A DNA stretch of 64,000 nt from a bacterium (GCA_037481695.1 JBBFLE010000001.1:128989-192988), one strand, 5' to 3'; shown: positions 20,900 through 40,406, counted from the first letter of the stretch. Translations and numbers: made by a program. The notes: a model not told the origin generated them from the sequence alone.

Positions 20900-21220
20900 G
20901 GCTCGCTCTCTTGGCCTGGCTCAACAGCCAGCTCGGCTACTCAAGCAACCGCGAACTGCTGGAGGACATGAAGCAGGCCGACGAGGGCTTTGACGCTTCC
21001 GGGCGCAGTCACATCTACCATCGGCTCCTCTCGCGCGGCAGCAAGGTGCGAATCCCCCGAGGACCTGGCGCGTTACGATGACAACATCCGCGCGCACCTG
21101 GCGGCCATCAACGCCCGCCGTAGCCAGCCCATCACCCTGCTCTACTTCCAGTACCTGGCCTTCCTCTACACCGAAATCGTCCTTGCACCTAGATTTCATC
21201 TTTCACCGCCACCCAGCTGA
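20900..21220 (+). pseudogene. Frameshifted fragment of an unidentified gene (two adjacent frames: ...WLNSQLGYSSNRELLEDMKQADEGFDASGRSHIYHRLL... / ...DDNIRAHLAAINARRSQPITLLYFQYLAFLYTEIVL)
   Basis: Short ORFs without start or RBS lying between HepT and the DUF499 gene; family not recognised. Confidence 0.25.
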
Positions 21221-24200: not shown

Positions 24201-24510
24201 TAACGAGGTGGCGAAGCGTGATCAGGGTATGGGTCTTGCCGCCCCCATAGGTGAGTTCCAACTGGCGGACGGCCTTGTCGTTCTTCCCGGCCAGCCGCAA
24301 AACCACGTCGCGCACGAGCTGGCGCAGGTTGTAGGTCGGGAAGGTAAGGGCGAAAAACTCCTCGGGCTTCTCGTAGATCGGGCGCTTGCCACGCTGCATC
24401 AGGACCTCGTAGAGGTCGGCGGCGAACATATGAAGCGGGAGTTCGCCGGAGCGCAGGTCCTCTCGCAGATTGACCACCTCGTGCCACGGCTTCCAAGGTA
24501 GCTTGGCCAT
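21196..24510 (-). CDS. DUF499 (BrxC/PglY-like) AAA+ ATPase, with a C-terminal poly-Pro linker plus ~80-aa tail
   Basis: MAKLPWKPWHEVVNLREDLRSGELPLHMFAADLYEV... plus TYGGGKTHTLITL P-loop is the canonical DUF499 N-terminus; start taken at the internal ATG 24510 (the ORF extends to 24606). Confidence 0.8.
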   Translation of the reverse strand: MAKLPWKPWHEVVNLREDLRSGELPLHMFAADLYEVLMQRGKRPIYEKPEEFFALTFPTYNLRQLVRDVVLRLAGKNDKAVRQLELTYGGGKTHTLITLRHLVTDPDKLPNLPSVAEFVQAIGQKPPKCRVAGLCFDKLDVEKGMEIASPAGKVRTLKQPWSILAYQIAGDEGLKLLHADGKAEERDSAPAENLLAELLELPARDGLGTLILVDEVLMYAREKVAQDPEWRSRLVNFFQYLTQAVAKVDRCCLVASLLATDPRKSDTLGREIQAELYDIFQRQREEAVEPVVKEDIAEVLRRRFFTTESLKDRESFRQHVVAALKGIQGVDEQTAKQGAEAEERFLKSYPFHPDLTEVLYSKWTQLARFQRTRGVLRTFALALRQAEKWDMSPLIGPAVFLSPPGFEGLSESLREMVAVADTEEWEGKKQAWTGILNSEFAQAIRIQDESVGLKFREIEQAVVATFLHSQPIGQTARTRDLLVLLGSTRPDKIELQKGLARWAQESYWLDDLYAAVAEGQLPATWRLGNRPNLTQMHAIAAKNIPEDVVRARLLDDISKTKALTANASAAGARVHTLPARPKDIEDDGAFHYAVLGPGAASESGKPSPEAKRFIDETTGPDRPRVYRNAVILLVPSRDGLELAMARARDYLGWEQVREEIKKQQKDGNVDPARAETLQINIEKAKARIPEAVKQAYCIVVTVSEKDEVQAFKITVTEDPHFNIIKSDKRSRVQDTAITAEALLPDGPYNLWRSGETSRRVKDLAGAFAQLPHLPKMLRSSAILDTLANGCEGGTFVLRLTRPDGSVRTWWMSRPDENAMNDPALELVLPEAAELGEISPALLAPKHLPGLWSADEITVDAVTRYFSGSTVVQVEREGYQEPMRIPKAGQAVVEKAIGLAVESGALWLLSGPASILGEPIPAGVLNATSKLCPPPAVIAAAEILPENLPAAWKDGVASALSVATALSVKAGKTLPWKTVRDVITAALQARFLVLDQASGPWPCDFPGAQSVKLKVPLDVPPPPPPPPPSNVLMASAELEPSEIQELGDAIPDLLKLKAKANTPFRFFVRIEMGDGKTIPPPEAAKEANKILKKVKEELQLGGGER
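21431..21457. repeat. G-tract GGGGGTGGGGGTGGGGGCGGAGGCGGG (C-strand encodes P9 in the DUF499 protein); potential G-quadruplex / slippage-prone hexamer repeat
   Basis: Read directly from the sequence. Confidence 0.7.
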
Positions 24511-24511
24511 G

Positions 24512-24889
24512 TCAATCCCCCTCTCGATCCGGTTGATATTCCCGAATGCGGTTGCGCTCGACGATCCAGAGCTTGCCTTTGATATCGTTCTGAGCAAGCC
24601 CTTCAATCAACGTACGGCAGCACGCCCAGAGGTCTTGGTCGGTCGGCTTGTGCGGAAGGCGTAAGACGGCGATGCCGCTGTATTCCCAAGGAGGGAAAAG
24701 GAAGGGATTGCTGAAGTCCAGGTCGAGCGTGACTAGACACCTACCCTCTGCCCGACAGGCGGTGATGAGCACGCGATCGCTGGCGGAGCAGAGGTTTTGC
24801 TGCGGAACGGTGGCGACGTCATGGCCCGCGGATCGGAACAGGCGTGCACCCCGTTCACCCAAGTTCTCATCGAGCTTGAGCTTCATCAT
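24512..24889 (-). CDS. DUF5615 (PIN-like, Mut7-C fold) putative toxin
   Basis: MMKLKLDENLGERGARLFRSAGHDVATV...DLDFS pattern typical of DUF5615; start at internal ATG 24889/24886. Confidence 0.65.
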   Translation of the reverse strand: MMKLKLDENLGERGARLFRSAGHDVATVPQQNLCSASDRVLITACRAEGRCLVTLDLDFSNPFLFPPWEYSGIAVLRLPHKPTDQDLWACCRTLIEGLAQNDIKGKLWIVERNRIREYQPDREGD

Positions 24890-25131
24890 TGATTCGCCGC
24901 CGGCAGCTCGACATATCGTTCGCGCGACATTTCGGCCCCATACGCAATGCAAGCTCGGATGTCGTCGTCGTCGATACCAGGGTAATTCTCGCGGATCTGA
25001 TCGAACGTCCAGCCGCTGGCCAGCAAATCCAAGATCAGCGACACCCAGATTCGGTGTCCCCGAATACAGGGCTTGCCGAAGCAAATATTCGGATCGATGG
25101 AGATGCGCTTCAACAGGTCTTCTCGGTTCAT
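24886..25131 (-). CDS. DUF433 putative antitoxin
   Basis: FGKPCIRGHRIWVSLILDLLASGWTFDQIRENYPGIDDDDIRACIAYGAE matches the DUF433 consensus; 4-nt overlaps on both sides. Confidence 0.7.
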   Translation of the reverse strand: MNREDLLKRISIDPNICFGKPCIRGHRIWVSLILDLLASGWTFDQIRENYPGIDDDDIRACIAYGAEMSRERYVELPAANQ

Positions 25132-28100
25132 GGACGATCCTCCTTGTTTGACGGAGTATCGGTGTCGTCGCCAAAAGTCAAGCCCAGCTGGCGATTTTCC
25201 TTCACCGCGCCCCTGGCCTGGACGTGGTTGCTCAGGGATTCGAGCAGGGAGCGCTCTTCGCTTCCGTGGGGCGAAAGCTCGATGAGCGACTGGAGGAGCC
25301 GCTTGAAAAGTTCTTGCCGGCGCAGTCCGTTGCCGTCGAGGTACTCGTCCACCTTGGCAAGATCGCCGGCCTTCCAGAGATGCATCAGGCGGTGCACGCG
25401 GTCGATGAGAGGGATCGGTTTCCCGGCCGGCGCCTCATAGCCAAGTGAACGTCTCTTACGCTGCGCCCACGTCTTGAGCTTCACCTTGCTCCCGGATTCC
25501 TCGAAAGTAGTAGCCGCGTCCTCGCCGCTTTCTTCCTCTTCTATCTCATCATCATCTTCAAGCGACGAGACGTCGCTTCTACTATAGCCGATGATGTCCC
25601 ACGTGTCGGCCAGCTCCTTGTCGGAGAGGCCACACGAGATCGCGTAGAGGATGCACGCGCCCGCCGGGGCTTCCTCGAGGCCGAAGTCGTGACGATGCAG
25701 AAGGTAGTAGGCGGTTGGATCGTCGAGAGTAGACGCGTCGTCTCGACGCGTATCTTCATGTTCGCTTCCACTCAGCACTCGGCCGACCACGAACTCCACG
25801 ACCATCCGCCGCACGTGGGCGAGGAACTCGCTCACCGTCATCAGGCCCGGCTCATTGGCCTTCTTGACCACGGGGTGCTTGCTGTAGGCCTCGAGCGCCG
25901 GACCCGTTGCCGCCCACACGAAGTCCGGCCCACGGATGCCCGCGTCCCAGAATTCGCGGAGCTTGGCGCGGATATTCCGACGCATCTCTTCCAGAACCTG
26001 GTTGTCCCAGCCGGGCTTCGAAAGTAGAAGCGGCGTCCCGCCGCTTTCATCCACGCGACGAGACGTCGCGTCTACGAACGTAGAAGCGGCGTCCTCGCCG
26101 CTTGAGATTACGCGATGAGACGTCGCGTCTACTCGCTTCTTGCAGACCAGCCAAACGGAGGAGGCGAGAGCAGAAGACGCCTTTGCACGCATCCTGGTGT
26201 TCATCTCCGTCTGGATGGGCCAGCTGCCGTCGACGACGAAACCCGATCGAACGAGTGCCGACACGAGGGCTTCCCATGCATCAGGCTGCTTGTTGGCGAA
26301 AACAACAACCATCTTGCCATCCGGTTTCAGTGCGTTCCTGCACGCCTGAAACGCACGCGCCATTCCCTCCTCATAAACGGCCTTCGACTTGGCCTTGTCG
26401 CCTCCGTGACGACTTGCGTCATCGATGAGTTCCCCGTCGTTTCTCTCGTGATTCCACTTGGGCGAAAGGGGGTCTCGAAATGCCCTGTCCAGGTCCAGAG
26501 AAAGACCGTTCAGCGAGCGCTTCAGCCATAGATAGAAAAAATCCATCAGATCCGAGTACGGAATCGCATCGTAGTAGGGCGGGTCCGTCACCACGGCGTC
26601 GTACTGGCCGGAACTGATCTCGAGGGCAGATCGGTTCTCCGCCACGGGCGCCTCGGCATCCGTCGAAGCGAGTAAAGCATGGTCGATACAGAGCGACACC
26701 CAGTTGAGCTGGGCGCAATACGCCGCGCCGACGACATTGATGACTGCCACCTCGGCGAAGTCCCACGTAATCGGCAAAGCGAAGCGAGTAAAGGTATTCC
26801 CGACAAACTCGCCGGAAATAACCCATCGGCAAGTCGTTGAATTGTAGTCTGCAACCTTGTCGTTGAGTATGGCTAGGTAACCTATGACAGCCTCACGCCA
26901 TTCCGACGGATAGCCAAACCGCAACATCTCAGTTGCCGCCTCCCTCGTCCACTTCACGAACGTCCCCAGCGCCAGAAGCTGGCGGGGGGTGAAGAGATCC
27001 CTCCATCGCGTGAAGCCGTAGCCGTCTACGGAAAAAGCTCGGCTTGCTCCGATTCCTCCCCTGGGAGTCGGCTCCACGGGCAACCCGAACGGAATCTGCG
27101 CGAAGAGGTCGGGCAATGCCTTCTCTGCCTGACCCGCTTTCTCTATTTCCTCTCGCTCCGGCAGCCGGTACTCCTTGCCGTCTTGTCCTTCCACGACCAC
27201 GGCGGTCATGACCGAGCCGAGACGCCCGGCCCGACCCTCCAGTCGAATGTCCTCCATCGTCATGATCGTGCCGCAGCAGGGGCACTTGGCGCCAGAGCGC
27301 GACATCGTTCCCGCCCCGAGGCGCTTGTCGTGCTCGCGGCGCTGCGCTGCGTTCCCGCCTTTTACGGGAACGTTTGTCTCGATTCCAAAGACCACAGTAG
27401 ACGCGACGTCCCGTCGCGTTGGGGCGGCACTGTCTTCCGGCTTGCCCTTGGGATTATTCCGAATGTATTGCCTGACTCGTTCCATTTGAGCAGGGCTTCT
27501 AATAATGTGGTCAAAGGATTCTTTCTGCCATACGGTTCCGCTGCGCCCCAGTTTCCTGTTGATCTCGTGCGCCGTGTAGGACTTCCATGAATGAAGGATC
27601 TCGGACAGTTCATGCCCAGCCAGGGGGGTCACCAAAGCATGGACATGGTTGGGCATCACCACATGTTCATCGAGAAGGTAGCGTTCTCCATCAAAGTGCC
27701 GCAGAGCACTTTCGACAAGTGCCTTGATTTCTGGTTTGGCAAGGATGCATTCGCCGTAACCGGCGTCTAGCCATTCCTGAAAACGTTGGGGAAAAAGTTG
27801 ATAATACTCGCGACGTGTCTTTTCGTCGTGAGGTTCAGGATGTTTCTCCTGCCACGCCTTGCGTTCCTCTTCCCATTGCAGCAACTTCTCTTGAGGCATG
27901 GAATCTGCTAGACGGAAGGTCACGAAATAGGTTGCACCGTCCTGGCGCCAATGGGGAAGGTTGCCGGAAAGGTTGCCAATGGGGGCTTCAGGATCGAAGT
28001 AATGCAGAAGCGCCGTCTCGACGCTTCTCGCACGCGGCGAGGACGCCGCGTCTACTATTACTTGCATCGTGAGGAGCACGCGCTTTTTTTCCTTCTTGCA

Positions 28101-29138
28101 CAGCCAGCGGGTCTTGAGGAGCGGGATCGTCGCGCGGCAGTTCTTGCAGGTCACCGTGCGCGCCCAGAGGTAGGCGACCGTCGGCTTCGCCACCCATCGG
28201 GGATTGCGTTTGTCTGCCAGGTACTCCGCGCTGAACTGGGCATTCAGCCGGTCAATGTCCGGCTTCCCATCTTCCTTGAGGGGAACCAGGCGCGTGGGCT
28301 GCTTCTCGTAAGGTAGACGCGACGTCCCGTCGCATAGAAAGCGGCGGGACGCCACTTCTACCGGCTCGAACTCGGCGTAGGTCGGGTAGAACCTGGCAAG
28401 TTCCCGTCGGGCGCGGTCGAGAACCCACTGGCCCCACGCTCGGACGTGCCAGGCGAGGTCTGCTTCCAAAGGAGACGCGACGTCCCGTTGCATGGCCTGT
28501 TTAAAAAGCGACAAGACGTCGCTTCTACACCGCGGGTGCGCCTTGTAAAAGGCCTTCATGAACTCCTCGTTCTCGAGGATGAAGTCCGGCAGAGGATGGG
28601 TCTTCCCGGCCAGCTTCTGCGGATATTCGAGCGTGCATTTGAGGATGAACCAGGCGACCGGGTTGATGTCCACGGCCGTCACCTCGCACCCGAGGCGCAT
28701 GGCCTCCAGCGGGATCGCACCGCCGCCCGCGAAGGGGTCCAGCACTTTGGGTGGGCGCCCTCCGTAGGCCTTGCGGATCTCCTGCCGGAACCACTCCAGC
28801 AGCTCCTTGTTCTCGGTCTCCCGGCCCCAGTGCAGAATGCCTCCCTCGGTGGCTTCCTTCTCACGCTCGACGACCCGCCCGCCGGGCATCTTCTTGCGCT
28901 CGATCTTTTTCACTACTTTGCCACCGATTTTCTCGCAGAGCTTCTGGCGTGCTTCGGGCGTTCCGGGATCAGGCAGGAGCGTGGCGATGAGGGCGGCCCG
29001 GCACGCGGCCAGCGGCCGCCGCGCTGGCCAGATGTGGAGCGTCGAGATGTGCCCATGCCGCACGTTCTTCTCGTGGACGGAGTCCAGAGAAGCCTGCTTC
29101 AGCGGGAAGGCATGCTCGATCAGGCGAGATTTGTCCAT
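25128..29138 (-). CDS. DUF1156-family N6-adenine DNA methyltransferase (1336 aa) carrying an in-frame Y1/RAYT transposase domain and multiple in-frame REP-derived segments
   Basis: Canonical DUF1156 N-terminus (EHAFPLKQASL...HIWPARRPLAACRAAL); FxGxG motif (VLDPFAGGGAIP); Zn-ribbon KCPCCGT; catalytic DPPYYD motif; AGGA RBS 6 nt before ATG 29138. Confidence 0.85.
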   Translation of the reverse strand: MDKSRLIEHAFPLKQASLDSVHEKNVRHGHISTLHIWPARRPLAACRAALIATLLPDPGTPEARQKLCEKIGGKVVKKIERKKMPGGRVVEREKEATEGGILHWGRETENKELLEWFRQEIRKAYGGRPPKVLDPFAGGGAIPLEAMRLGCEVTAVDINPVAWFILKCTLEYPQKLAGKTHPLPDFILENEEFMKAFYKAHPRCRSDVLSLFKQAMQRDVASPLEADLAWHVRAWGQWVLDRARRELARFYPTYAEFEPVEVASRRFLCDGTSRLPYEKQPTRLVPLKEDGKPDIDRLNAQFSAEYLADKRNPRWVAKPTVAYLWARTVTCKNCRATIPLLKTRWLCKKEKKRVLLTMQVIVDAASSPRARSVETALLHYFDPEAPIGNLSGNLPHWRQDGATYFVTFRLADSMPQEKLLQWEEERKAWQEKHPEPHDEKTRREYYQLFPQRFQEWLDAGYGECILAKPEIKALVESALRHFDGERYLLDEHVVMPNHVHALVTPLAGHELSEILHSWKSYTAHEINRKLGRSGTVWQKESFDHIIRSPAQMERVRQYIRNNPKGKPEDSAAPTRRDVASTVVFGIETNVPVKGGNAAQRREHDKRLGAGTMSRSGAKCPCCGTIMTMEDIRLEGRAGRLGSVMTAVVVEGQDGKEYRLPEREEIEKAGQAEKALPDLFAQIPFGLPVEPTPRGGIGASRAFSVDGYGFTRWRDLFTPRQLLALGTFVKWTREAATEMLRFGYPSEWREAVIGYLAILNDKVADYNSTTCRWVISGEFVGNTFTRFALPITWDFAEVAVINVVGAAYCAQLNWVSLCIDHALLASTDAEAPVAENRSALEISSGQYDAVVTDPPYYDAIPYSDLMDFFYLWLKRSLNGLSLDLDRAFRDPLSPKWNHERNDGELIDDASRHGGDKAKSKAVYEEGMARAFQACRNALKPDGKMVVVFANKQPDAWEALVSALVRSGFVVDGSWPIQTEMNTRMRAKASSALASSVWLVCKKRVDATSHRVISSGEDAASTFVDATSRRVDESGGTPLLLSKPGWDNQVLEEMRRNIRAKLREFWDAGIRGPDFVWAATGPALEAYSKHPVVKKANEPGLMTVSEFLAHVRRMVVEFVVGRVLSGSEHEDTRRDDASTLDDPTAYYLLHRHDFGLEEAPAGACILYAISCGLSDKELADTWDIIGYSRSDVSSLEDDDEIEEEESGEDAATTFEESGSKVKLKTWAQRKRRSLGYEAPAGKPIPLIDRVHRLMHLWKAGDLAKVDEYLDGNGLRRQELFKRLLQSLIELSPHGSEERSLLESLSNHVQARGAVKENRQLGLTFGDDTDTPSNKEDRP
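25509..25583. repeat. REP doublet (REPIN-like) with expanded acidic spacer, in frame in the methyltransferase (encodes SRSDVSSLEDDDEIEEEESGEDAATTF)
   Basis: GTAGTAGCCGCGtccTCGCCGCT ... AGCGACGagaCGTCGCTTCTAC. Confidence 0.6.
25729..25751. repeat. Solo REP hairpin GTAG-ACGCGTCG-tct-CGACGCGT (encodes TRRDDAST)
   Basis: Perfect 8-bp stem preceded by GTAG. Confidence 0.65.
26024..26132. repeat. Two tandem REP doublets (REPINs, 52-53 bp each, period 56 bp): GTAGAAGCGGCG-tcc-CGCCGCTT/spacer/ACGCGA(C/T)G-aga-CGTCGCGTCTAC; in frame, encodes VDATSHRVISSGEDAASTFVDATSRRVDESGG
   Basis: Read directly; the two REPs in each doublet are inverted (GTAG ... CTAC). Confidence 0.75.
27397..27419. repeat. REP hairpin GTAG-ACGCGACG-tcc-CGTCGCGT immediately 3' of the RAYT domain (encodes TRRDVAST)
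   Basis: Read directly; orientation inverted relative to the REP on the other side of the RAYT. Confidence 0.7.
27425..27965 (-). mobile_element. IS200-like Y1 transposase / REP-associated tyrosine transposase (RAYT) domain, embedded in frame in the methyltransferase
   Basis: LPHWRQDGATYFVTFRL..., HuH motif MPNHVHALV, ...GTVWQKESFDHIIRS..., RQYIRNNP (catalytic Tyr region); no own start codon; flanked by inverted REPs at 28005-28055 and 27397-27419. Confidence 0.75.
28005..28055. repeat. Degenerate REP plus REP (CGCGGCG-agga-CGCCGCG-TCTAC) immediately 5' of the RAYT domain (encodes IVDAASSPRARSVETALL)
   Basis: Read directly. Confidence 0.6.
28313..28362. repeat. REP doublet GTAGACGCGACG-tcc-CGTCGCA/tagaa/AGCGGCG-gga-CGCCACTTCTAC in the N-terminal half of the methyltransferase
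   Basis: Read directly. Confidence 0.6.
28471..28528. repeat. Degenerate REP doublet (GGAGACGCGACG-tcc-CGTTGCA ... AGCGAC-aag-ACGTCGCTTCTAC) in the N-terminal half of the methyltransferase
   Basis: Read directly. Confidence 0.5.
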
Positions 29139-29162: not shown

Positions 29163-29663
29163 TTAGGGTCTGCCGTCCACTTCAGACATCCTGATGGCAT
29201 CGTGTCCTATAGGGAACACATATGCTGCCGCGTGCCAATCTCTATTGGGATCGCCGCCCATCAGCAGAAGTACCGGTTCGGGACACCTCATCGCATTATT
29301 GGTGGCAAATGACTTCATTTGTTCATGGTCTATTTCGCTAGGGATAGGGGCGGCCAAAGGATGGTAATGCCACTCGCCAAGGTAATACTGTTTCCGACGC
29401 CAGAGACGGTTCAAGAACGCCTGGAGACCTCGCACGCCGCGGTTGAAAAATACTCTGCCTCGTCTGGAATCTGCCGGAGGTCCAGACACATCGGTTACGA
29501 TAGCCCAATCGTGCTTGTCAGTATAGTAACCAACGAGAATTCCCCCTGTCTCCATATGCCTTGATGCCTTACAGAATGCGATTATCTTGTCCATTGTCAT
29601 TCCTTGCACAGACAGTCCAAACCGCGCATCAGGCGTTCTAAACTCAAGGGTTCTCATGTTCAT
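29163..29663 (-). CDS. cap3: CBASS Cap3-like JAB/JAMM isopeptidase
   Basis: E...HYHPLAAPIPSEID = HxH-x7-S-x2-D JAMM motif; 166 aa; directly downstream of the E1/E2 gene. Confidence 0.75.
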   Translation of the reverse strand: MNMRTLEFRTPDARFGLSVQGMTMDKIIAFCKASRHMETGGILVGYYTDKHDWAIVTDVSGPPADSRRGRVFFNRGVRGLQAFLNRLWRRKQYYLGEWHYHPLAAPIPSEIDHEQMKSFATNNAMRCPEPVLLLMGGDPNRDWHAAAYVFPIGHDAIRMSEVDGRP

Positions 29664-29665
29664 TA

Positions 29666-31555
29666 CTATTGGACCAATTTGATTCCCGGTGGGAACTCAT
29701 CCTTCTGCTCCTGTTCAAACACGCACAATCGAGGAGAACGTGGAGGATTAGTCATCCATGAATCAATGCATTTCACGGCGATGGAACTCAACAACCAGAT
29801 ATCATCCGAGCGAGCGGGAAAGACGGGGTGCCAGCATCCGAGCCCTTCGGGGGGCAACTCGAATCCCTTGTGCTCTTTCAACTCTTTGTCGAGCCACGGG
29901 GTCAGCATGGCCGAGAAATCATGATGGGGGAACCTCTCGCCACATGCCCCGAATAAAAATAACCGTCGGGCTTGAAGACCTGTCGAGATACTCACAAACA
30001 GTTTGTTGCCCTCCCAAGGAAAGGTGCTCAATCGGAAAGCAGCACGGTCATCACCAGTACAGTCGATGACGATAGTGCACTCCGCCATTTTCCGTTGCTC
30101 AACCTCAGTGGTGTTGTGCACGTATCGTCTGACCCCCTCGGCGGTAACGTGAGGAGAGATGCTGTTCAATCGGGCCGCCAACGACTCTGCTTTTGGTGTC
30201 TGTATCTCTTGGATGGAGAGCGTGTGACGACACAAGTTGCCCACTTCAAGGATGTCTCCGTCTACCACAACTATTCTCTGACAGCCTTCGCGAACGAGTA
30301 TCTCAGCCACCGAGGATCCTATAGCCCCAGCGCCAACTATCAGAACCTTGGCACCCGTTAGTGAAGATGATGCTCGGCCTCTTGTCCGTATCTGTTGCTC
30401 CGACCAGTTCCTTGAGATGATCCAGTCAATGCTGCTGCTATCCGAAAGAACGGTACGGGCGTCGTTCATTGCGAAGTTTCCCTCCTTGGGGCGAAAGCCT
30501 TTCACCTTGCCATGTGTAAGCACAGGCAGCTGGAGTGCCTGCCAGTGGTACATCGCGGGTTCGCCCCCAATGGTAGTTGGTATGGGGAAGCCGACAAGTA
30601 GAATGTGCCGTTTGCCGTCACGAAAGTCTCGAGCAAGGTCGAAGAACAGAGGATTGAAGTCAACGCCCTGTTCCTTCATTGCTGCTCGCAGTTCGCCGAA
30701 GGTTGCGGGGGCTTGCCAAGGGTGGATCACCGGTATACGAGGTAGGCGGATCCACATCGCGGAGAGTTTGCGCGCAGTCCCATGCCTTAACAAGGCTCCG
30801 TACTCCACTTCCCGAATGGTTTTTCCTCGTGCATTTGAGAAGGTGGTGACGGCATACCACGCGTTGACGCCATCAGGTTGAACCACGGTGGCAACCCCAC
30901 ATACCTCGACCGTCTCTTCCTGCCAGAACCGAAAGGAGTCCTCGTCTTCGATGAAGCCTAGTGTAGTGTGTGATCGTCGCGGAAAGTCTGGCAATTCGAA
31001 CGGTTCGCCCACCTCGGCTACTCGACCTGCTGCCGCAGCCTCTAACCACTCCTTAGCTCGCATTACGTGCCACCGCAACCGCTCTTCAGGCGAGGTGGGT
31101 TCGATATCGTAGGCCCGCCGCCCCGCGTAGCGCAGCGATGTCCGGACGCATATCTTCCCCTCTCGCCACGGGACATCAGGATTCCCCTCAGCGTTGTGTG
31201 ACTGATGGGGAAATGTGTGTTTGATCCCCCCGTCTTTGGCAGGATACAGTTCAATATCGCCCCATGGATAGTCGTCATCTGCAACGATGAACCACACCGA
31301 CTTGGCAGGAATGAGACCGGCAGGCTTTACCGTCAAACGACATCGCAGCGCCCATTTCTTGAATAGCTCATTCCACACCCAGTCTTCCAACAGTTCGCAG
31401 AAAGGGAGTCCATCCAGCGCTCGTCGTGCTCGCAACAAACTATCTGGTGGTTGGAATTTCATATTGTCAAGCAAAGCGTCCGCCTCCGATGATGGAGACA
31501 TTCTTCCTTGGCGTATACCCACCCGGCTTGTCGGGCGACTCACCGTTACCGTCAT
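29666..31555 (-). CDS. cap2: CBASS Cap2-like E2/E1 fusion (ubiquitin-conjugation-like)
   Basis: C-terminal ThiF/E1 Rossmann KVLIVGAGAIGSSVAEIL...VVVDGDILEVGNLCRH; N-terminal E2-like half; start ambiguous (ATG 31555, 31501 or 31462; the ORF runs to TTG 31591), overlapping the CD-NTase 3' end. Confidence 0.7.
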   Translation of the reverse strand: MTVTVSRPTSRVGIRQGRMSPSSEADALLDNMKFQPPDSLLRARRALDGLPFCELLEDWVWNELFKKWALRCRLTVKPAGLIPAKSVWFIVADDDYPWGDIELYPAKDGGIKHTFPHQSHNAEGNPDVPWREGKICVRTSLRYAGRRAYDIEPTSPEERLRWHVMRAKEWLEAAAAGRVAEVGEPFELPDFPRRSHTTLGFIEDEDSFRFWQEETVEVCGVATVVQPDGVNAWYAVTTFSNARGKTIREVEYGALLRHGTARKLSAMWIRLPRIPVIHPWQAPATFGELRAAMKEQGVDFNPLFFDLARDFRDGKRHILLVGFPIPTTIGGEPAMYHWQALQLPVLTHGKVKGFRPKEGNFAMNDARTVLSDSSSIDWIISRNWSEQQIRTRGRASSSLTGAKVLIVGAGAIGSSVAEILVREGCQRIVVVDGDILEVGNLCRHTLSIQEIQTPKAESLAARLNSISPHVTAEGVRRYVHNTTEVEQRKMAECTIVIDCTGDDRAAFRLSTFPWEGNKLFVSISTGLQARRLFLFGACGERFPHHDFSAMLTPWLDKELKEHKGFELPPEGLGCWHPVFPARSDDIWLLSSIAVKCIDSWMTNPPRSPRLCVFEQEQKDEFPPGIKLVQ

Positions 31556-32603
31556 CCTTCTTTGCCGGTGGGTCCGGGAACCGGTCACCAAAGAGCTGTC
31601 GCCACAGAATCACGCTCTCGTGCAGGTCTTCTTCGTTGTATGCTCGGCGGGCTAACTCGGCTGCCTCCGTGATGTGCTCGTGGAAGGCGACGAAGTCATC
31701 GGGAGACACTCGCCCTAATACATTGTGCTCTGGAACACCATGGTCAGGAACCCTTGGTGTTCGTTTCTGCTCAACATCTGTGCGGTATACGTCGCGAATG
31801 CCTTCGAGGGCTGAGACCACACCAGCGGCGACGGATTGAATACCATCCGCGCAGTTTATGCAGCAAAGGTGCTCTAGGGGATAGCTCTTGGGGTACTTTG
31901 GCTCCCGGCGTTGCGTGGTTCGCCACCATTTCAGGCACTTCACAACGTCGAGGTAGTAGCCATTGCATGCTGCATTCTTTCTTTGCGTTGCTTCAATCTG
32001 AGCCAATGGATGTGTCTTGTGCCATTCCTGTGCTTCTCGGTCAGGAATCCAGAGGGGCTCGTTTCGCCATTGTTCATCCCCCGCCTTCTCCAATATCGCG
32101 CCTAGCGATTTGCCAGACCGCCACGACAGGCTGAGCCTCCAGTCACGAGCTTCTTCCAGTGTTTGGTCGGTTGAGACGCTCGCAGACTTGACGAGCTGTT
32201 TCAGCGCCTCGCTAGGTGCGGATGTCGGCACGAGGTCCAGTTGGACATAAGATAGTTCAATGCCCCACGAGCGGCCTTGCGGCTTGTACTTGCCCTTGTA
32301 GTGCTTCTCCAAGAAGGGCCTGAAGCGTTCCAAGGCCTCACGAGGTGTGATCTTGTTTCGGTCGAGATTCGTTACGATGATAATGTCGACATCGGATTTC
32401 CTCCGGTCTTCGAACGGTCTGATCGCCGTGGAGCGCCTATAGCTGCCCTGAAGGAAGGTCGCCACAACGATGTCCTTCAAATCTTCGTCCTTGAGGAGCC
32501 GGTCCCTGAGTGTGCTGTGCCCGTTCTTACAATCCTGGACTTGGCTCTCCGTGATCCTGATGTTCCTCAAGAAATCGATGAAGTACGATGGTACATTACT
32601 CAT
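31467..32603 (-). CDS. CD-NTase (cGAS/DncV-like nucleotidyltransferase) of a type II CBASS
   Basis: GSYRRSTAIRPFEDRRKSDVDIIIV (GS...[DE]h[DE] NTase active-site motif); 378 aa; C-terminus ...IIGGGRFA; ATGA start/stop overlap with the effector gene. Confidence 0.75.
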   Translation of the reverse strand: MSNVPSYFIDFLRNIRITESQVQDCKNGHSTLRDRLLKDEDLKDIVVATFLQGSYRRSTAIRPFEDRRKSDVDIIIVTNLDRNKITPREALERFRPFLEKHYKGKYKPQGRSWGIELSYVQLDLVPTSAPSEALKQLVKSASVSTDQTLEEARDWRLSLSWRSGKSLGAILEKAGDEQWRNEPLWIPDREAQEWHKTHPLAQIEATQRKNAACNGYYLDVVKCLKWWRTTQRREPKYPKSYPLEHLCCINCADGIQSVAAGVVSALEGIRDVYRTDVEQKRTPRVPDHGVPEHNVLGRVSPDDFVAFHEHITEAAELARRAYNEEDLHESVILWRQLFGDRFPDPPAKKDDGNGESPDKPGGYTPRKNVSIIGGGRFA

Positions 32604-34171
32604 TCCATGTCCCCCTTATGTTTTCCACGCGTTCCAAAACTCGAGCCGCAACTAATAGGGACGCTGATAGACTGATAATATGCAGCACCGCCTGCATCGA
32701 GATCATGCTCGTACAGCACCAGCTTGCCGAGAACGTGCGCCAACCGCCCAAGCAGGAACATTATGCCGTTGGGGGCCGCGAAGAACACGTGCAATACGCC
32801 GCCTTGTCCGCCGCACAACTCCCTGACGGTGGCAACGAGACACTCGGCCAAGAGATGGGCATGAGTTCCATCCTTAACCGATGAGGGGCCTGCAGACGGG
32901 AGGAGGAAGTGAACGATGCTCCCGGCTGTCTTGACGTTCAGTCTCACGTACTTCAAGACGTCCTTCTCGATGTTATGTGTGGCGCTGATTGCAAGGACCG
33001 TATCCGTGGTGTTCGCCGGTTCCAGTTTGATAACGCTCACATCCCATTTCGGGTAGTGTTTCTCGATTTCGGGCGAAACGTGTGCTTTTCTCCATATATG
33101 CCGCCCTGCAAGGCTGTCCTGCACGGGCACGATGTCCACGCCAGATTTTGGGTTCAGCGCCCATCCCGCAATGAATGCGATGCTACCGTGCGTCTGGAGG
33201 CGGATATGGAATGAGCGCGAAGGCTTCACATTCACATCGAGAAAGCGAATCACCGCAGGGGCTATGATCTCATTCCACGTATTGGGTACTCTTGGAAACC
33301 GCCCGTTGAAATGGCGAAGCAGGCAGAGTGTCGCGTCGGTTTCGTCTTCAAGGTTCTCGGCATACCGCCAGAAGCTGCGGATGCCGATCCTTGTGGCATC
33401 AGGCTCTTCAATCGCCCGCCCCGCCCAGAGAGCACATTCGCGGGAGAGTTTTTCAAGGGAATCTCTTGTAAGAACTCTGTCTCCTCTTTCAATTAGTTTT
33501 CGCCCAAGATCATCGTACGGGTTTATGGGGTTGCCCGGCTGGACCGGAACGAGCCCTACCAAACGGAGGCGAAGATTTAGGTCTTCGCCCAATTTTTCCA
33601 ATGTCGGCCCCTGATGCACGCGAACAAGGCGCAGCAAACGCTGCAGTTCCTCGTCTGACCGGAGGCCTAAATGTCTCTTCCACGCCTCACGCACTTTCCC
33701 CATCCTCGACTTAGGGCCGCCTCGAGACAACACATCCCATCGCAGGCTTCCGTCGGTCAGGCTGTGAAATGCGCCCATCTCGTTGTCGGGATGGACCTGC
33801 CACGGTGAAAAGATGTTGAACCGACAGTTACAGCCTTTTGATGCGCATTTGCGTTGCGCGTTCAAAAGTCGTTGCAGAATGGATACTGAGTTGGCGTTCA
33901 CAAACGAGGGATCCATCATGTTTTGCCATGTGAAGGCCCCGTTGCTTTTAACGTGAAACTTGACTTGGTAGAAATCTGCGTGAATGGACTCACCCGCATC
34001 GGAATAGCCGCTATAACGGACCACCACGTCGTCCAGAGATTTTGCCTCATCGCTCTCAATCTCCACGCTTACAACTTTCGTCTTGTCCTCGAGCAGACGG
34101 CATGCCTGCAACCAGAAGAAACGTATCTGATAGTCGTCGCCCTGAAGCCGTGCTGCAACTGCTCTAGCCAT
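32600..34171 (-). CDS. cap4: Cap4-like CBASS effector: N-terminal DUF4297/REase-fold nuclease plus C-terminal SAVED domain
   Basis: Start at MARAVAARLQGDDYQIRFFW (GGAGG upstream; 2-nt gap after the helicase stop); D...QVK nuclease motif; C-terminus ...LHVFFAAPNGIMFLLGRL typical of SAVED. Confidence 0.6.
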   Translation of the reverse strand: MARAVAARLQGDDYQIRFFWLQACRLLEDKTKVVSVEIESDEAKSLDDVVVRYSGYSDAGESIHADFYQVKFHVKSNGAFTWQNMMDPSFVNANSVSILQRLLNAQRKCASKGCNCRFNIFSPWQVHPDNEMGAFHSLTDGSLRWDVLSRGGPKSRMGKVREAWKRHLGLRSDEELQRLLRLVRVHQGPTLEKLGEDLNLRLRLVGLVPVQPGNPINPYDDLGRKLIERGDRVLTRDSLEKLSRECALWAGRAIEEPDATRIGIRSFWRYAENLEDETDATLCLLRHFNGRFPRVPNTWNEIIAPAVIRFLDVNVKPSRSFHIRLQTHGSIAFIAGWALNPKSGVDIVPVQDSLAGRHIWRKAHVSPEIEKHYPKWDVSVIKLEPANTTDTVLAISATHNIEKDVLKYVRLNVKTAGSIVHFLLPSAGPSSVKDGTHAHLLAECLVATVRELCGGQGGVLHVFFAAPNGIMFLLGRLAHVLGKLVLYEHDLDAGGAAYYQSISVPISCGSSFGTRGKHKGDME

Positions 34172-34173
34172 AT

Positions 34174-37100
34174 TCAGCTCTCCTCCGCCTCCATGATCTG
34201 CCTTGCGCTGATCAGAACGCTCCCCTTGGCCCGGGCGAGCAGGCTCCCGAAGGGGTCCTGGACGCGCACGAGGCGTGGGTTCGAGGTGGCGCAGTCGTAG
34301 ACTACGTAGAGCCAGTAGTCCTGCCGCATGTTGCAGGCCCTGGCCCATTCATTGGCGGACACCTCGATGTCGCCGGTGCCGGCCCGGCCCTTGACCTCGA
34401 TGGCGCGTTTCTCGAAAGTAGAAGGGGCGTCCTCGCCGCTTGAAGTTACGCGACGAGACGTCGCGTCTACAGAGCGGATGGAAAGCAGGTCAAAGCCAGG
34501 GTTCTCCGGCAACCCTGCCGCACGCGCCAGCTCCGGAGTATGCACGTCCAGAACCTTCGCTCCTGCGGCTTCCTCGAAGGCCCGGGCGATTCTCATGGCG
34601 GCCAATTCCACGTTGATGTCGTGCTCCTTGATGTCTCTCGGATCAGAGGATGGCACAACCAGGGCGTGCGCGACGAAGGTAATTGGGCCAGGCGCGACCA
34701 GCTCGGGTTCTCGACGCAGCACCGCCAGGGCGTTCGATCTGCGTTGGGCAAGCTGTCTCTGCTGGCGCTTTACTTCCTCCAGCGCATCCATGGCTTTTCG
34801 GTTTCCCTTGCGAGCCTTTTCCGCGTGCCTGGTGCGGGCGGCCGCAAGTTCGGCCTCCCGGAAGTCGAAGCCGCGGCGAAGGAAGCTCTCACGCTCCGGC
34901 AGCGTGTCCAACAACCTCTTTCTGCGCTCCAATGCCATTTGGCGCGCCACTTGTTCCAGGAGAAACGCTTTCGCCTGTTCCTTCATCTTGCCGGCCTCAA
35001 CCGCCAATCGCTGCGCAGCAGGCGGGAGGCCATGACCACCTTTCAAGAGGAGGAGGTGTTCGACCGGGCAGAGCGCCACGTCGGCGTCATCGTACTGCCT
35101 CAGCCCCACCAGCCGGCATTCGAGCGTCTCTTCCTCGGTGAGTTCGGTCAGTTCCGCGTCGGGTTTTCGGATCACCGACAAGAGCGCCATGTGGAAGAGA
35201 TACGGCCTATCGGTCATGGGGTCGACGAAGACGGCGCCCCTTTGGCCTGCGTCCGCGAGGCGTTCGGAAATCAGGGCGCGGAATCGCTCGAAGACGGGCT
35301 CGCCTGGATGAAGCCAGATCACCTCTTTCGGATCTGTAGGTCTGGACACTGTCAGTTTCTCGCGGGACTTCTCCGGATAGAACTCCAGCGCGGACAAGAG
35401 CGGGTCCATCGCCCCCGTTCGCTTGGGGCGCAGGGAGAACACGCCTCCAGGATCCCCCTCGATTTCCAGACCCAAGAGCGGCGCCGCCTGCTCGATGTAC
35501 TGGCGGACGTAGCCCGGCAACAACCGGAAATACACCTCCCGCTCGAGGTTCTCTCGAAGCCGCGGGAGTTGCCTGGCGACATCTCCGCCCGAGCCGTAAA
35601 GGGACCGTTCGCGGGCGGCCAGGGCCTCCAATTGCTCCTTGGTCAGGCGGCCATCCAGTTCACGCGCCACCTCGTCGGGGTCTTCGATGACCGCAAGCTC
35701 CATGTACTTCCTGATGGAAACCCCCTGGAATATCCGCCCGATGCAATCGAAGACCTTGTCAGAGTTTAGCTCCTTCCGAATTTTCTCCATCTTGTCGAGA
35801 AGCGTCTTGAGCACCCGGCCTTCCCGGGTGGACGGCGCCACAAGGTTCAGGATGATGACCGGATCGTGCTTTTGCAGGTAGCGATGGATGCGCCCCATCC
35901 GCTGTTCGAGGCGCGCCGGGTTCCACGGCACGTCGTAGTTGATCATGATCCAGCAGAACTGGAGGTTGATCCCCTCGCCCGCCGCGTCCGTGCATACCAG
36001 AAACCGTGCGCCGCCCTCATGAGACGCCTTGCGGAAGCGCTCCACTTCTTCTTCACGCTGGGTAAAGTGCATGCCGCCGTGGATCTGGGCCACCTGCCCC
36101 GTGTAGCCCATCCCGATGAGGCGCTTGACCAAGAAGTCCAGCGTGTCCCGGTGCTCCGTGAACACGATGAACTTCTCGTCACCGAATTTAGGGTCGGTCA
36201 GGATTTCCCTAAGCTTCTCGAACTTGGACTCCTGGCCTAGGTCGTAGACCTGCCTCGCCAACGCGAGCAACTTTTGGACCTGCTCCCGTTCGGCCAACAG
36301 ATCCGCCAGCGAAGCGGCGACCACCCCCTGGAGCAACTTGTCCTCGGCAAGCTCGTTTTCCTCGCGACCTTCCGCCGGGCTTTCATCATCAGCGGTCTTG
36401 TTATCGAGGACGTCGTCTGTCTCATGGATGCGTTGCTGCAGGGTCACGAGCTGCTCGACGTTCAGTTCGCCGTCCTGCACGGCCTCAATGAGTCCTTCGA
36501 GCTTTTCAATCCGGCGCTCGAAGGATCGCAGGAGCGCCCAAGTTGAGCTGGCCAGCCTCCGCTGGAACACGCCCATGGCCAGCCGCGCTGCCTCCCGGTT
36601 CAGGAGCTTCGCCTTATTGTAGACGAACCGAAGGTAGTCTGTGGTCTCGTCGTATAGGGTCTGTTCGCTGATCGGGCCCTGGGATAGTTCATAGCCGAGC
36701 GTGTCTGAGATCCGCTTCGGGAAAAGAGGCCTGCCGTCGAGGTAGACCATCTCCTCCTTGGTGCGGCGAATGAAATGGCTCGCGCGGTGTTCCGCCGGGA
36801 ACTCGTTGAACGCTTCCGGAGTGGACAGCACGTCGGGTTCAAGGAGCCGCCACAGCGCGTAGTAGGGGTAGTCCTTGCCCATGTGGGGCGTGGCGGTGAG
36901 CAAGAGGAGATGATGGGCGCACCAGCCCAGACTCCATTGATCATCGAGATCGCGCACTCCCGCCAGGGCCTCCGCCAAGCAGTAGCGGTCTGTCTTGCGC
37001 ACCCGCATGTCGTTGCCGCGATCTGCGGACAGTTTGTGTGCCTCGTCAAAGACGACGAGATCGTAGGGGATGACATCGGGTTCCTTGAGGCGGGCAAAGA

Positions 37101-37791
37101 CCCTGGGGCTGGAGAGCGTGTCCAAGCTGACGATGATCCGGTCGCTGTCATCGCCTTTGAACGGGTTGTCGTTACGGGCGTCTGATCCGCTCACGATTCG
37201 GAAGACCAGGTTGAAAAGCGTCGCCAGTTCATGCCGCCAGTTTCCGACTAGCCCCGCCGGGGTGACGATCAGGACTCGACGCAGGAGCCGTCGGGAGAGC
37301 ATCTCGCGGAGGTAGAGCCCGGTCATGATCGTCTTCCCCGCGCCGGCATCGTCGGCCAAGAGGAAGCGGAGCCGGGCTTGCTTGAGCATGTGCTCGTAGA
37401 CGGCGATGCGCTGGTGAGGCAGCGGATCGATGCAGGAGATCTCGGTGGCAAAGGCGGGATTCATGAGGTGGCCGAAGGAAAGCCGTTCACCCTCGGCCAG
37501 CACCTTCACAATCTCGGGCGGGGCGGTGAAGTCCAGTATCGGTGGTGCGCCCCCGTAGGAGTGTTGCTCCGGCTCGGCGACCTTGCTTCGAGTGTCCAGT
37601 TCCGCCTCCAGCTGTCGTAGGCGGGCCCAGCAGATTTTCGATGGCTTGACCTTGCCGTTCTCCCAACGATTTACGGTAGGAAATGATACGCCGACCGCCT
37701 CAGCGAGCGCGACCTGGGTCAGTCCTAAGCGTGCCCGCAAGGCTTTTATCCTGCGAGGGTAATCGTCTCCTGGCGTTGAAGTCATAGCCAT
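34174..37791 (-). CDS. XRE-family HTH fused to SNF2/COG0553 helicase with C-terminal DUF3883-like domain
   Basis: LGLTQVALAEAVGVSFPTVNRWENG HTH; DDAGAGKT (motif I), VVFDEAHKL (II), LLLTATP (III), QRMGRIHRYLQ (VI); C-terminal EVKGRAGTGDIEVSANEW...YWLYVV; start at MAMTST. Confidence 0.8.
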   Translation of the reverse strand: MAMTSTPGDDYPRRIKALRARLGLTQVALAEAVGVSFPTVNRWENGKVKPSKICWARLRQLEAELDTRSKVAEPEQHSYGGAPPILDFTAPPEIVKVLAEGERLSFGHLMNPAFATEISCIDPLPHQRIAVYEHMLKQARLRFLLADDAGAGKTIMTGLYLREMLSRRLLRRVLIVTPAGLVGNWRHELATLFNLVFRIVSGSDARNDNPFKGDDSDRIIVSLDTLSSPRVFARLKEPDVIPYDLVVFDEAHKLSADRGNDMRVRKTDRYCLAEALAGVRDLDDQWSLGWCAHHLLLLTATPHMGKDYPYYALWRLLEPDVLSTPEAFNEFPAEHRASHFIRRTKEEMVYLDGRPLFPKRISDTLGYELSQGPISEQTLYDETTDYLRFVYNKAKLLNREAARLAMGVFQRRLASSTWALLRSFERRIEKLEGLIEAVQDGELNVEQLVTLQQRIHETDDVLDNKTADDESPAEGREENELAEDKLLQGVVAASLADLLAEREQVQKLLALARQVYDLGQESKFEKLREILTDPKFGDEKFIVFTEHRDTLDFLVKRLIGMGYTGQVAQIHGGMHFTQREEEVERFRKASHEGGARFLVCTDAAGEGINLQFCWIMINYDVPWNPARLEQRMGRIHRYLQKHDPVIILNLVAPSTREGRVLKTLLDKMEKIRKELNSDKVFDCIGRIFQGVSIRKYMELAVIEDPDEVARELDGRLTKEQLEALAARERSLYGSGGDVARQLPRLRENLEREVYFRLLPGYVRQYIEQAAPLLGLEIEGDPGGVFSLRPKRTGAMDPLLSALEFYPEKSREKLTVSRPTDPKEVIWLHPGEPVFERFRALISERLADAGQRGAVFVDPMTDRPYLFHMALLSVIRKPDAELTELTEEETLECRLVGLRQYDDADVALCPVEHLLLLKGGHGLPPAAQRLAVEAGKMKEQAKAFLLEQVARQMALERRKRLLDTLPERESFLRRGFDFREAELAAARTRHAEKARKGNRKAMDALEEVKRQQRQLAQRRSNALAVLRREPELVAPGPITFVAHALVVPSSDPRDIKEHDINVELAAMRIARAFEEAAGAKVLDVHTPELARAAGLPENPGFDLLSIRSVDATSRRVTSSGEDAPSTFEKRAIEVKGRAGTGDIEVSANEWARACNMRQDYWLYVVYDCATSNPRLVRVQDPFGSLLARAKGSVLISARQIMEAEES
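34418..34470. repeat. REP doublet (REPIN) in frame in the helicase, between the helicase core and the DUF3883-like domain (encodes SVDATSRRVTSSGEDAPSTF)
   Basis: GTAGAAGGGGCG-tcct-CGCCGCTT/gaagtt/ACGCGACG-aga-CGTCGCGTCTAC; same family as the copies in the methyltransferase. Confidence 0.75.
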
Positions 37792-37823
37792 GGTATTCTC
37801 ATCGCCGAGTGACAATATAAAAA

Positions 37824-37852
37824 ATTATATCATATGCAATAGTGAGTGTCAA
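37824..37852 (-). promoter_or_regulatory. Consensus sigma70 promoter TTGACA-N17-TATAAT driving the helicase/CBASS/MTase/ATPase gene string
   Basis: Minus-strand reading TTGACActcactattgcatatgaTATAAT, about 30 nt upstream of the helicase start; AT-rich with ATATAA/TTATAT inverted repeat. Confidence 0.55.
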
Positions 37853-38149
37853 ACTATCACACGATGGGAGGCATTTGCGCTGTTAAGGTTTTGGGAGGCC
37901 TGGTCAATGCGCGGAGAGGTTTGCACGGCGGGTTGGGGCCGGCAGATGTCACAGCTGGAGGCCCAAAAGCTTTTGCTACAGGCTCACTTTGGCGCTCTGA
38001 GCATTTTCACTCCTGGTTTCAAAAACACCACCCCCCGCTGCTTCTCGATCTGCCTCCCACCTTGCAACAACTACGCTGCCTTGCGTGACTTGGGGCTCCA
38101 AACCAAAGAACGCATTTGCTCCTTACGATTGCTCTCGACCACCCCTACC

Positions 38150-38526: not shown

Positions 38527-38542
38527 AAGCTGTATGGCGCTC

Positions 38543-40076: not shown

Positions 40077-40406
40077 TCAAGAGCACATGCAACATGGAGA
40101 GCATCCATGGTGCGTAATTTGTTTTTTTTCTAGCAGTCTTATGGAACGTGAGACCACCGAAGGAGTTATCTGTAGAACCGTTGCATCACTGACATCTTTT
40201 AGCAGTTGTTTCTTTACGGATAGATAATCAGAAAGGCTCAGACTATGTTCCCTTAGCCTCCTATTGAGGCCGGAGGTAATTTCGGGCACCAAAACAACAC
40301 AAAAAGCCAACTCGTCAGCATTCTTCAGGAAACTTTCCAGTTCCTTGCTGCCAATCTCTTGCACATACCTTTTGGCAAACGATGATGAATCGACTGCAAG
40401 TTTCAT
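40077..40406 (-). pseudogene. PIN-domain (VapC-like) N-terminal fragment
   Basis: MKLAVDSSSFAKRYVQEIGS...VVLVPEITSGLNRR resembles the first half of a PIN domain; C-terminal half missing; AT-rich surroundings. Confidence 0.3.

Follow-up and report, generated by a model that had tools for sequence, protein, structure and literature searches.

The C proteins of restriction-modification (R-M) systems, dimers of the XRE type, recognize palindromic boxes at the promoter from which their own operon is transcribed. In M.SsoII and M.Ecl18kI the regulator is part of the enzyme: an N-terminal region resembling the 434 repressor occupies an operator and keeps RNA polymerase off the promoter from which the enzyme is expressed (PMC3978073, PMC2760811). 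The Hma defense system (Payne 2021, PMC8565338), since renamed type 1 bacteriophage exclusion (BREX)-related among the DUF499 systems (PMC12839542), commonly embeds other defense systems, and the architecture of the locus described here is already known (10.1101/2024.01.29.577857). Anti-phage activity in Hma has been shown only for Halomonas HmaA against T4 (PMC11232893), and the published domain descriptions of HmaA and of the BR helicase mention no helix-turn-helix (HTH) domain (PMC11232893, PMC12839542). Here we analyze an Hma locus in a bacterial genome (GCA_037481695.1, JBBFLE010000001.1:128989-192988; this stretch of 64,000 nucleotides is referred to as the window, and all positions are counted from its first letter). 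Its hmaA gene, on the minus strand, encodes a helicase-nuclease with a Cro/C1 (XRE)-type HTH at the N terminus, and a palindrome lies across the extended -10 element of the consensus promoter ahead of it. Region 37866-37815 is most likely the single promoter-operator of a nine-gene, ~16.6-kb Hma operon. We consider negative autoregulation the likely function, in which the fused HTH domains would compete with sigma-70 on the palindrome and throttle the very strong promoter of the nine genes.

A conserved palindrome lies on the hmaA promoter

The initial annotation of the window had placed a TTGACA-N17-TATAAT promoter about 30 nucleotides (nt) upstream of the helicase gene in an AT-rich patch, and every part of this description was borne out (Table 1). 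The two hexamers match the consensus at 12 of 12 positions across a spacer of 17 nt, 32 nt separate the -10 from the ATG at 37791, and GC content is only 29% in the patch (37811-37866), versus 62% in the adjoining coding sequence. All elements of a sigma-70 promoter sequence (TTGACA, a 17-nt spacer, TATAAT, and the optional TG) are present. The -10 spacing predicts a transcription start at ~37817. The start codon listed for the hmaA open reading frame (ORF), TTG 37815, coincides with this predicted start; ATG 37791, or 37785 as in database protein P0001, is the likely one. This promoter is the sole 12/12 site on its strand within the whole 18-kb gene array, and sites with up to one mismatch number 2 in the window versus 0.06 expected from shuffled sequences. 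The window holds one other perfect TTGACA-N17-TATAAT (50033-50005, minus strand), ~160 nt upstream of an ATG near 49846 and followed by the near-palindrome ACATTGTATACAAAGT; it has no relation to the Hma locus and agrees with the presence of consensus sigma-70-type promoters in the host chromosome.

A scan of GTDB with one genome per species found 247 stretches that encode relatives of the window protein, and 80 loci were kept. These represent at least 14 phyla (including Desulfobacterota, Verrucomicrobiota, Planctomycetota, Bacillota, Bacteroidota, Nitrospirota, Acidobacteriota, and Elusimicrobiota), are 61 to 76% identical to the window protein, and in nearly all of them the alignment begins within query residues 1 to 10. 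Alignment of the 200-nt hmaA upstream regions of 75 loci revealed three conserved blocks only: the -35 TTGACA, a palindrome, and an 8-bp box (ATCGCGTG). The family palindrome spans 18 bp, with the arms ATATAaCAT and ATGtTATAT meeting at the center, and has a 16-bp core of TATAnCA-NN-TGnTATA. Its right arm is the extended -10 (TGnTATAnT) and its left arm sits in the spacer; both arms are about equally conserved, and the flanks carry no information. The conservation of the spacer-side arm therefore goes beyond what RNA polymerase alone would require. The window copy, TATTGCA-TA-TGATATA, covers the promoter spacer, the TG of the extended -10, and four bases of the -10 hexamer. An operator that overlaps the enzyme's own promoter is a feature of enzyme-fused autorepressors, and the palindrome here has that placement.

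Anchored on the palindrome, promoter matches of at least 9/12 occur in 66 of the 75 loci and of at least 10/12 in 47; in 51 loci the spacer measures 17 nt. Few members of the family have the perfect 12/12 promoter (3/75 loci including the window), the typical form being TTGACA-N17-TATAtT. When the palindrome is read in its mirror orientation, -35 matches are found at chance level only, which indicates that the promoter is directed at hmaA alone. The inverted repeat that the initial annotation had noticed, ATATAA/TTATAT, does occur in the window (37830-37825 and 37820-37815, with a 4-nt gap), but the segment past the -10 is variable in relatives, so the conserved operator lies elsewhere and this repeat was rejected for the role. 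Two relatives (L054 and L071) have tRNA 3′ ends directly upstream of hmaA; the palindrome is absent in the former and displaced to -225 in the latter.

The 8-bp box is centered 28±1 bp from the palindrome center in 61 of the 75 loci. It is on the upstream side in 45 loci, 5 nt ahead of the -35, and on the downstream side in 16, in inverted orientation and at roughly +8 to +15 of the transcript; locus L067 has both. The box is a sharply bounded 8-mer, dissimilar to the half-site and without flanking conservation. Its placement is symmetric about the palindrome and not about the transcription start, which ties it to the palindrome's binder, and this symmetry fits a repressive role because an activator site downstream of the start would not work. 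The bound complex probably gains a second contact from the box, whose reader may be another surface of HmaA or one of the HTH or winged-HTH domains that have been reported in HmaB and HmaC (PMC12839542). Other roles considered for the box were rejected: a third half-site (it is a distinct, bounded 8-mer with unconserved flanks), a methylation target of HmaB (it is invariant while the HmaB proteins of these loci are only 48 to 91% identical to that of the window), and the -35 of a divergent promoter (the box is in the wrong place for one).

HmaA begins with a repressor-like HTH domain

The hmaA ORF extends from ATG 37791 to a stop at 34174 on the minus strand (1205 amino acids), and Pfam assigns SNF2-rel_dom, ResIII, Helicase_C, and NOV_C to its product (SNF2-rel_dom, Helicase_C, and NOV_C above cut-offs). 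The fusion of an N-terminal Cro/C1-type HTH to the SNF2 helicase, as initially annotated, was confirmed by Pfam, phmmer, AlphaFold2, and Foldseek. HTH_3 (PF01381) scored 41.8 bits against a cut-off of 23 over residues 15-51, HTH_31 scored 35.2 against 27, and phmmer aligned residues 13-52 with the 434 and P22 c2 repressors and also matched dh434. The AlphaFold2 model of residues 1-70 has a predicted local distance difference test (pLDDT) score of 81 to 96 and four helices (11-22, 26-33, 37-44, and 52-71), the recognition helix being residues 37-44 (SFPTVNRW). After residue 72 the pLDDT falls below 50, and the truncated Tudor region is low too.

The best solved matches in Foldseek were C.Kpn2I, C.BclI, C.AhdI, P22 c2, the 434 repressor, HipB, and HigA, with target-normalised template modeling (TM) scores of 0.64 to 0.76 and root mean square deviations of 1.0 to 1.8 Å to 8tac, 4yba, 3jxb, 1y7y, and 9k3w. 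These top matches (the C proteins, P22 c2, the 434 repressor, HipB, and HigA) we take to be autoregulatory DNA-binding dimers. The HTH is conserved to the same degree as the catalytic core. Residues 63-85 are unconserved, and the linker (residues 72 to ~90) leads to a conserved ILDFTA that opens the helicase body. HmaA thus has the N-terminal HTH on a flexible linker that is found in enzyme-fused autorepressors.

The HTH is a constant part of this clade. In the 120 best database homologs (71 to 100% identity), which share the architecture, PF01381 was detected in 118. The two exceptions, P0110 and P0106, were rejected as HTH-less homologs, being artefacts of a late start call (HTH codons are in frame upstream) and a contig end, so all 120 closest homologs count as HTH-bearing. 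A search with the N-terminal 74 residues returned 13 short proteins only, on contigs of 2 kb or less and most likely from truncated hmaA genes, and thus no evidence of a free-standing HTH. The representative search with residues 1-110 returned mostly multi-HTH repeat proteins and fragments, and the clade collapses to a few clusters at 50% identity.

Two more distant HmaA proteins (~35% identity), one from Thermus thermophilus HB8 pVV8 and the other from a Rhodococcus plasmid, show no Pfam HTH at their N termini. Their tblastn alignments, which seemed to start inside the HTH (query residue 3 or 23), were dismissed as spurious extensions, and no TATAnCA-type palindrome was found upstream of these two genes. 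On pVV8 (L081, 8860-8930), the HTH-less HmaA homolog is divergent from a Fic-DUF1156-HicAB-HTH-HTH-HEPN/DUF499 row; the shared intergenic region contains GTATCACAAGA twice as a direct repeat, and the row itself includes two HTH genes that are free-standing.

The palindrome is exclusive to hmaA and follows its recognition helix

The pattern TATNNCANNTGNNATA had 56 exact matches in 1.195 Mb of related loci, where shuffled sequences predict ~0.7, and all of them lie upstream of hmaA (54 within 200 nt and the others at 225 and 267 nt). The 64-kb window contains 1 match versus 0 expected. A motif-first scan of 241 million metagenome records, using the pattern ATCGCGTG-N16-TATANCANNTGNTATA and no gene criterion, gave 35 matches, 33 of which sit 26 to 73 nt upstream of a sequence like the HTH-hmaA N terminus. 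These 33 comprise 32 intact or contig-truncated HTH-hmaA starts and one truncated remnant (L112); the remaining two are a disrupted remnant (L102) and a 1.1-kb contig without a gene (L104). Loci L102 (7333-7510) and L112 (291-800) are decayed and have the box, promoter, and palindrome intact ahead of a truncated hmaA, which in L102 meets a stop after 28 codons and in L112 retains only residues 3-131, followed by cargo genes and hmaB.

The half-site also varies with the protein. At least one TATATCA-type half-site was found in 22 of the 24 loci whose HmaA has the helix 3 variant VSFPTVNRWENGK (SFP..NGK), compared with 3 of the 51 loci with VSFATVNRWENGQ (SFA..NGQ) or other non-P variants (Fisher 1e-13, without correction for phylogeny). 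The T variant occupies both arms in 11 loci. By manual extension of the phmmer alignment, the A/P residue of helix 3 aligns with Gln29 of the 434 repressor, which we take to be a base-contacting residue in the repressor-operator structure.

Proposed autoregulation and alternative explanations

In the proposed mechanism, the Cro/C1-type HTH of HmaA would be carried on a flexible linker of ~20 to 30 residues, and two such domains would bind TATTGCA-TA-TGATATA, presumably as a dimer, given the palindrome. Because the right arm of the palindrome is the extended -10 TGnTATAAT, bound HmaA and sigma-70 RNA polymerase would vie for the same bases, and an intrinsically very strong promoter would be held down by its own first product. 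Both the fused HTH as the binder of the palindrome and the repression that follows from binding we infer from sequence comparison. The same switch would govern HmaB, HmaC, and the embedded cyclic oligonucleotide-based antiphage signaling system (CBASS), because all junctions downstream are 24 nt or shorter, and promoter, operator, and repressor domain could form a self-contained cassette that moves with the gene between phyla. Autoregulation by the fused HTH had been suggested in the initial annotation. The comparative results from over 100 related loci (a conserved palindrome on the extended -10, its exclusivity, the motif-first scan, and the tracking of helix 3) support that idea, but with TATTGCA-TA-TGATATA as the operator in place of ATATAA/TTATAT.

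Several observations weigh against autoregulation. The window left arm, TATTGCA, deviates from the right arm and leaves a palindrome of 5/7 only, and ~3 of 77 HTH-hmaA loci have no palindrome within 200 nt. The HmaA dimer is suggested by the palindrome itself, and a simple HTH-dimer model leaves the auxiliary box unexplained. HTH or winged-HTH domains have been reported in HmaB and HmaC, which could be the real binders (PMC12839542). The HTH and the operator are adjacent in the DNA, and their covariation may reflect linkage or shared ancestry, not co-adaptation. Segment-wise identity shows that the window HTH and linker resemble one subgroup and the helicase body another, which is the pattern expected from a module swap. 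The N-terminal module may have moved in one piece, but the identity scan is not decisive and was not used as evidence. Finally, no binding, footprint, transcription-start, or expression data for any member were found in the searchable literature.

Four other explanations were considered, each of them weaker than autoregulation on the evidence given. The HTH might mainly tether or target the helicase-nuclease or sense invader DNA, with the palindrome as a parking site or one of many targets and transcription control incidental. Fusion to the effector itself, and not to a separately encoded regulator, would suit such a role, as would a conservation equal to that of the catalytic core and the many HTH modules of other BREX-related components that have been assigned to substrate recognition (PMC12839542). 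However, the sole conserved site match in 1.2 Mb of loci is the hmaA promoter, on its -10, where a general targeting domain needs no site, and more distant HmaA proteins function without an HTH, that of Halomonas defending against T4 with no HTH among its listed domains (PMC11232893). Targeting as the main role is thus unlikely, and it is compatible with autoregulation. We find it harder still to credit that another protein, either HmaB or HmaC through their HTH or winged-HTH domains or a host factor, binds the palindrome and/or the box while the HmaA HTH has another target. The several such domains described in HmaB and HmaC (PMC12839542), the presence of hmaB and hmaC with the site in all sufficiently long loci, and a box that is unlike the half-site and unexplained would agree with this possibility. 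That a host factor should play this part in at least 14 phyla is implausible, and the HTH-less HmaA loci have DUF1156 and DUF499 genes without the palindrome. Cro/C1 HTH dimers usually target a palindrome of 16 bp with 7-bp arms and a 2-bp center, exactly the dimensions found here, and the half-site type follows the helix 3 residue of HmaA.

That the conserved 60-bp block is an end or recombination site of a mobile island, and not an operator, is very improbable. Its conservation does end abruptly upstream of the box, tRNA 3′ ends lie just upstream in two relatives, and insertion sequence (IS) remnants are found upstream in the window, but the block keeps a promoter geometry (-35, 16- to 18-nt spacer, and extended -10) aimed at hmaA at 26 to 73 nt from the start codon. 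The box occurs on either side in mirror orientation, even in the 5′ untranslated region, which is impossible for an element terminus, and the two tRNA-adjacent loci (L054 and L071) are those with the motif absent or displaced. No recombinase was seen in the loci whose annotation was viewed, although no systematic test was made. Equally little credence can be given to a strong constitutive, or bidirectional, promoter in which two mirrored extended -10 elements only happen to form a palindrome. The right arm is TGnTATAnT, and its mirror image therefore reads as an extended -10 on the other strand; yet that side has neither a -35 nor a conserved gene, the mirrored arm is conserved across phyla as strongly as the functional one, the palindrome covaries with the HTH, and the box is symmetric at ±28 bp about the palindrome and not about the transcription start.

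A further reading, possible but rather doubtful, makes the effector itself the sensor: bound through its HTH dimer at the palindrome and through another surface at the ATCGCGTG box, at a distance of 28 bp, HmaA would hold the near-consensus, host-independent promoter shut, and invading DNA would titrate HmaA off and induce the island and its cargo. The interest of the system would be higher if this model held. HTH-HmaA would then be a portable, infection-responsive expression platform for embedded defense genes, which would explain why embedding is so common in Hma.

The Hma operon and its cargo

The locus is an Hma defense system, with HmaA, HmaB, and HmaC all matching PADLOC models, and a type II CBASS lies between hmaA and hmaB. 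It has the SNF2 helicase with C-terminal NOV_C nuclease and, on the same strand, the DUF1156 HmaB and DUF499 HmaC that define Hma, and all components of a type II CBASS are present (CD-NTase, Cap2, Cap3, and a SAVED-nuclease effector). The order is hmaA, four CBASS genes, hmaB, a DUF433/DUF5615 pair, and hmaC, all on the minus strand. None of the eight junctions exceeds 24 nt, and four are overlapping start and stop codons. A search of the 18-kb gene array found no second strong promoter on its strand, and terminator-like hairpins in the array are no more frequent than in shuffled sequence. Co-transcription of the nine genes is predicted on this basis. Housekeeping genes on the flanks suggest that the host is an uncultured member of the Desulfobacterota (deltaproteobacteria). 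Wherever a related locus is long enough to include two or more hma genes, they follow one another on a single strand as hmaA, hmaB, and hmaC, with optional cargo in either gap, and four loci besides the window have a CBASS in the hmaA-hmaB slot.

Table 1. Coordinates of the promoter elements, domains, and genes of the Hma locus in the window
Feature	Position	Strand	Basis or remark
Auxiliary box ATCGTGTG (family consensus ATCGCGTG)	37858..37865	-	5 nt upstream of -35; center 28 bp from operator center
-35 hexamer TTGACA	37847..37852	-	At least 5/6 bases in 54/75 relatives, palindrome-anchored
Probable operator, 16-bp palindrome TATTGCA-TA-TGATATA	37826..37841	-	Family TATAnCA-NN-TGnTATA
Extended -10 TGATATAAT	37824..37832	-	TG 37832-37831, TATAAT 37829-37824
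Inverted repeat ATATAA-TTTT-TTATAT of the initial annotation	37815..37830	-	Spans -10 and predicted transcription start
hmaA: HTH-Tudor-SNF2 helicase-NOV_C/PD-(D/E)XK nuclease, 1205 residues	34174..37791	-	PADLOC HmaA E=1.1e-152, Pfam
Cro/C1 (XRE)-type HTH, residues 10-71	37579..37764	-	Pfam, phmmer, AlphaFold2, Foldseek
Variable linker, residues 72 to ~90, low predicted order	37522..37578	-	pLDDT <50 from residue 72; unconserved
NOV_C (DUF3883) nuclease domain, residues 1063-1175, with in-frame REP-like insertion 34413-34470	34267..34605	-	Pfam
CBASS effector, Cap4-like (endonuclease-SAVED)	32600..34171	-	ATG 2 nt past hmaA stop; PADLOC Effector 4e-154; Pfam SAVED
CD-NTase (SMODS), cdn	31467..32603	-	Start overlaps upstream stop (ATGA); PADLOC Cyclase 1e-151
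Cap2-like E1-E2 fusion	29666..31462	-	PADLOC E1-E2 7e-208; Pfam ThiF
Cap3-like JAB peptidase	29163..29663	-	PADLOC JAB 2e-49; Pfam Prok-JAB
hmaB: DUF1156 N6-adenine methyltransferase, 1336 residues, with in-frame Y1_Tnp (RAYT-like) insert and REP-like hairpins	25128..29138	-	PADLOC HmaB E=6e-110, Pfam
DUF433-like small protein	24886..25131	-	By eye; start overlaps hmaB stop
DUF5615 / PIN-like protein	24512..24889	-	Pfam
hmaC: DUF499 ATPase, last gene of the array	21196..24510	-	PADLOC HmaC E=3.4e-72, Pfam DUF499

Several features of the locus are independent of the promoter. The DUF433-like/DUF5615 pair (24512-25131, minus strand) between hmaB and hmaC has ATGA start/stop overlaps on each side. 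A hairpin resembling repetitive extragenic palindromes (REP), GTAG-ACGCGACG-nnn-CGTCGCGT, is present in nine copies, all inside the coding sequences of hmaB (25546-28528) and hmaA (34413-34470); every copy keeps the reading frame (peptide VDATSRRVxSSGEDAxSTF), and zero copies occur in the rest of the 64 kb (0 expected). An IS200-like Y1 transposase domain, similar to REP-associated tyrosine transposases (RAYT), is inserted in frame in hmaB (27443-27940, residues ~400-565) with REP hairpins on its flanks, giving 1336 residues versus ~1060 to 1090 in most relatives. At least three further loci (L004/L083, L079, and L026) have the insertion at the identical hmaB position with 47 to 79% identity, and separate RAYT-like ORFs lie between hmaA and hmaB in L006, L008, L010, and L079. 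The 690 nt upstream of the promoter (37853-38542) contain no convincing gene; a plus-strand ORF (38290-38526) resembles, by eye only, the C-terminal remnant of an IstB-type IS21 helper, and a PIN-like ORF is located at 40077-40406. Rfam and tRNA scans of the window gave zero matches.

Comparison with known systems

How costly or self-toxic defense islands are kept quiet, and how they function after jumps to distant hosts, is understood for only a few cases, such as BrxR, CapW/CapH-CapP, and the C proteins. The window provides a compact case, in which a consensus promoter, an operator on its extended -10, and a repressor domain in the first protein would move as a unit through at least 14 phyla, and the defense island most likely limits its own expression in whatever host it enters. 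Among hosts of embedded defense genes, Hma systems are the best known. In the window, translation of the cargo is coupled to that of hmaA, so the same switch would govern the cargo. The published suggestion that embedding permits co-regulation (10.1101/2024.01.29.577857) thereby becomes concretely testable. Orthogonal repressor-promoter pairs could be drawn from the paired variants (A/Q with TATAACA and P/K with TATATCA), which would amount to a small specificity code found in nature. Earlier work has established Hma systems, embedded cargo, and enzyme-fused autorepressors; no description of the XRE-HTH HmaA clade, the portable promoter-operator cassette, the paired HTH/half-site variants, or the mirror-placed box was found in the searchable literature.

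M.SsoII and M.Ecl18kI resemble HmaA in being defense enzymes with an N-terminal 434-repressor-like HTH of ~70 residues on a flexible linker, and the same regulatory logic would apply. They differ in that the carrier is the C5 methyltransferase of a two-gene type II R-M system, whose operator also tunes the facing R promoter, whereas HmaA is a SNF2 helicase-nuclease heading nine genes, with a putative operator on the extended -10 and a mirror-placed 8-bp box. The C proteins (C.AhdI, 1y7y; C.Kpn2I, 4yba; C.BclI, 2b5a) offer the nearest solved folds to the HmaA HTH. In contrast to HmaA, they are free-standing, ~80 residues long, and act on paired C-boxes by activation and then repression. The HmaA HTH is neither free-standing nor associated with paired C-boxes: it is a fused domain in 120/120 close homologs, faces one palindrome on the -10 (suggesting repression only), and has no C-box sequence nearby.

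BrxR/WYL in BREX, CapW or CapH-CapP in CBASS, and Aca/Acr-Aca in phages likewise place an HTH repressor at the strong promoter of a costly or toxic operon of immunity or counter-immunity (Aca, PMC13551039; BrxR as cited in PMC12839542). These regulators are separate proteins or inhibitor fusions, unlike HmaA, and often include a ligand- or damage-sensing domain. The CBASS embedded here lacks a dedicated regulator and seems to rely on the HmaA switch instead. Compared with Hma systems as published (10.1101/2024.01.29.577857), the window locus has the same gene order and likewise embeds other defense systems, and its clade adds the HTH and the conserved promoter-operator.

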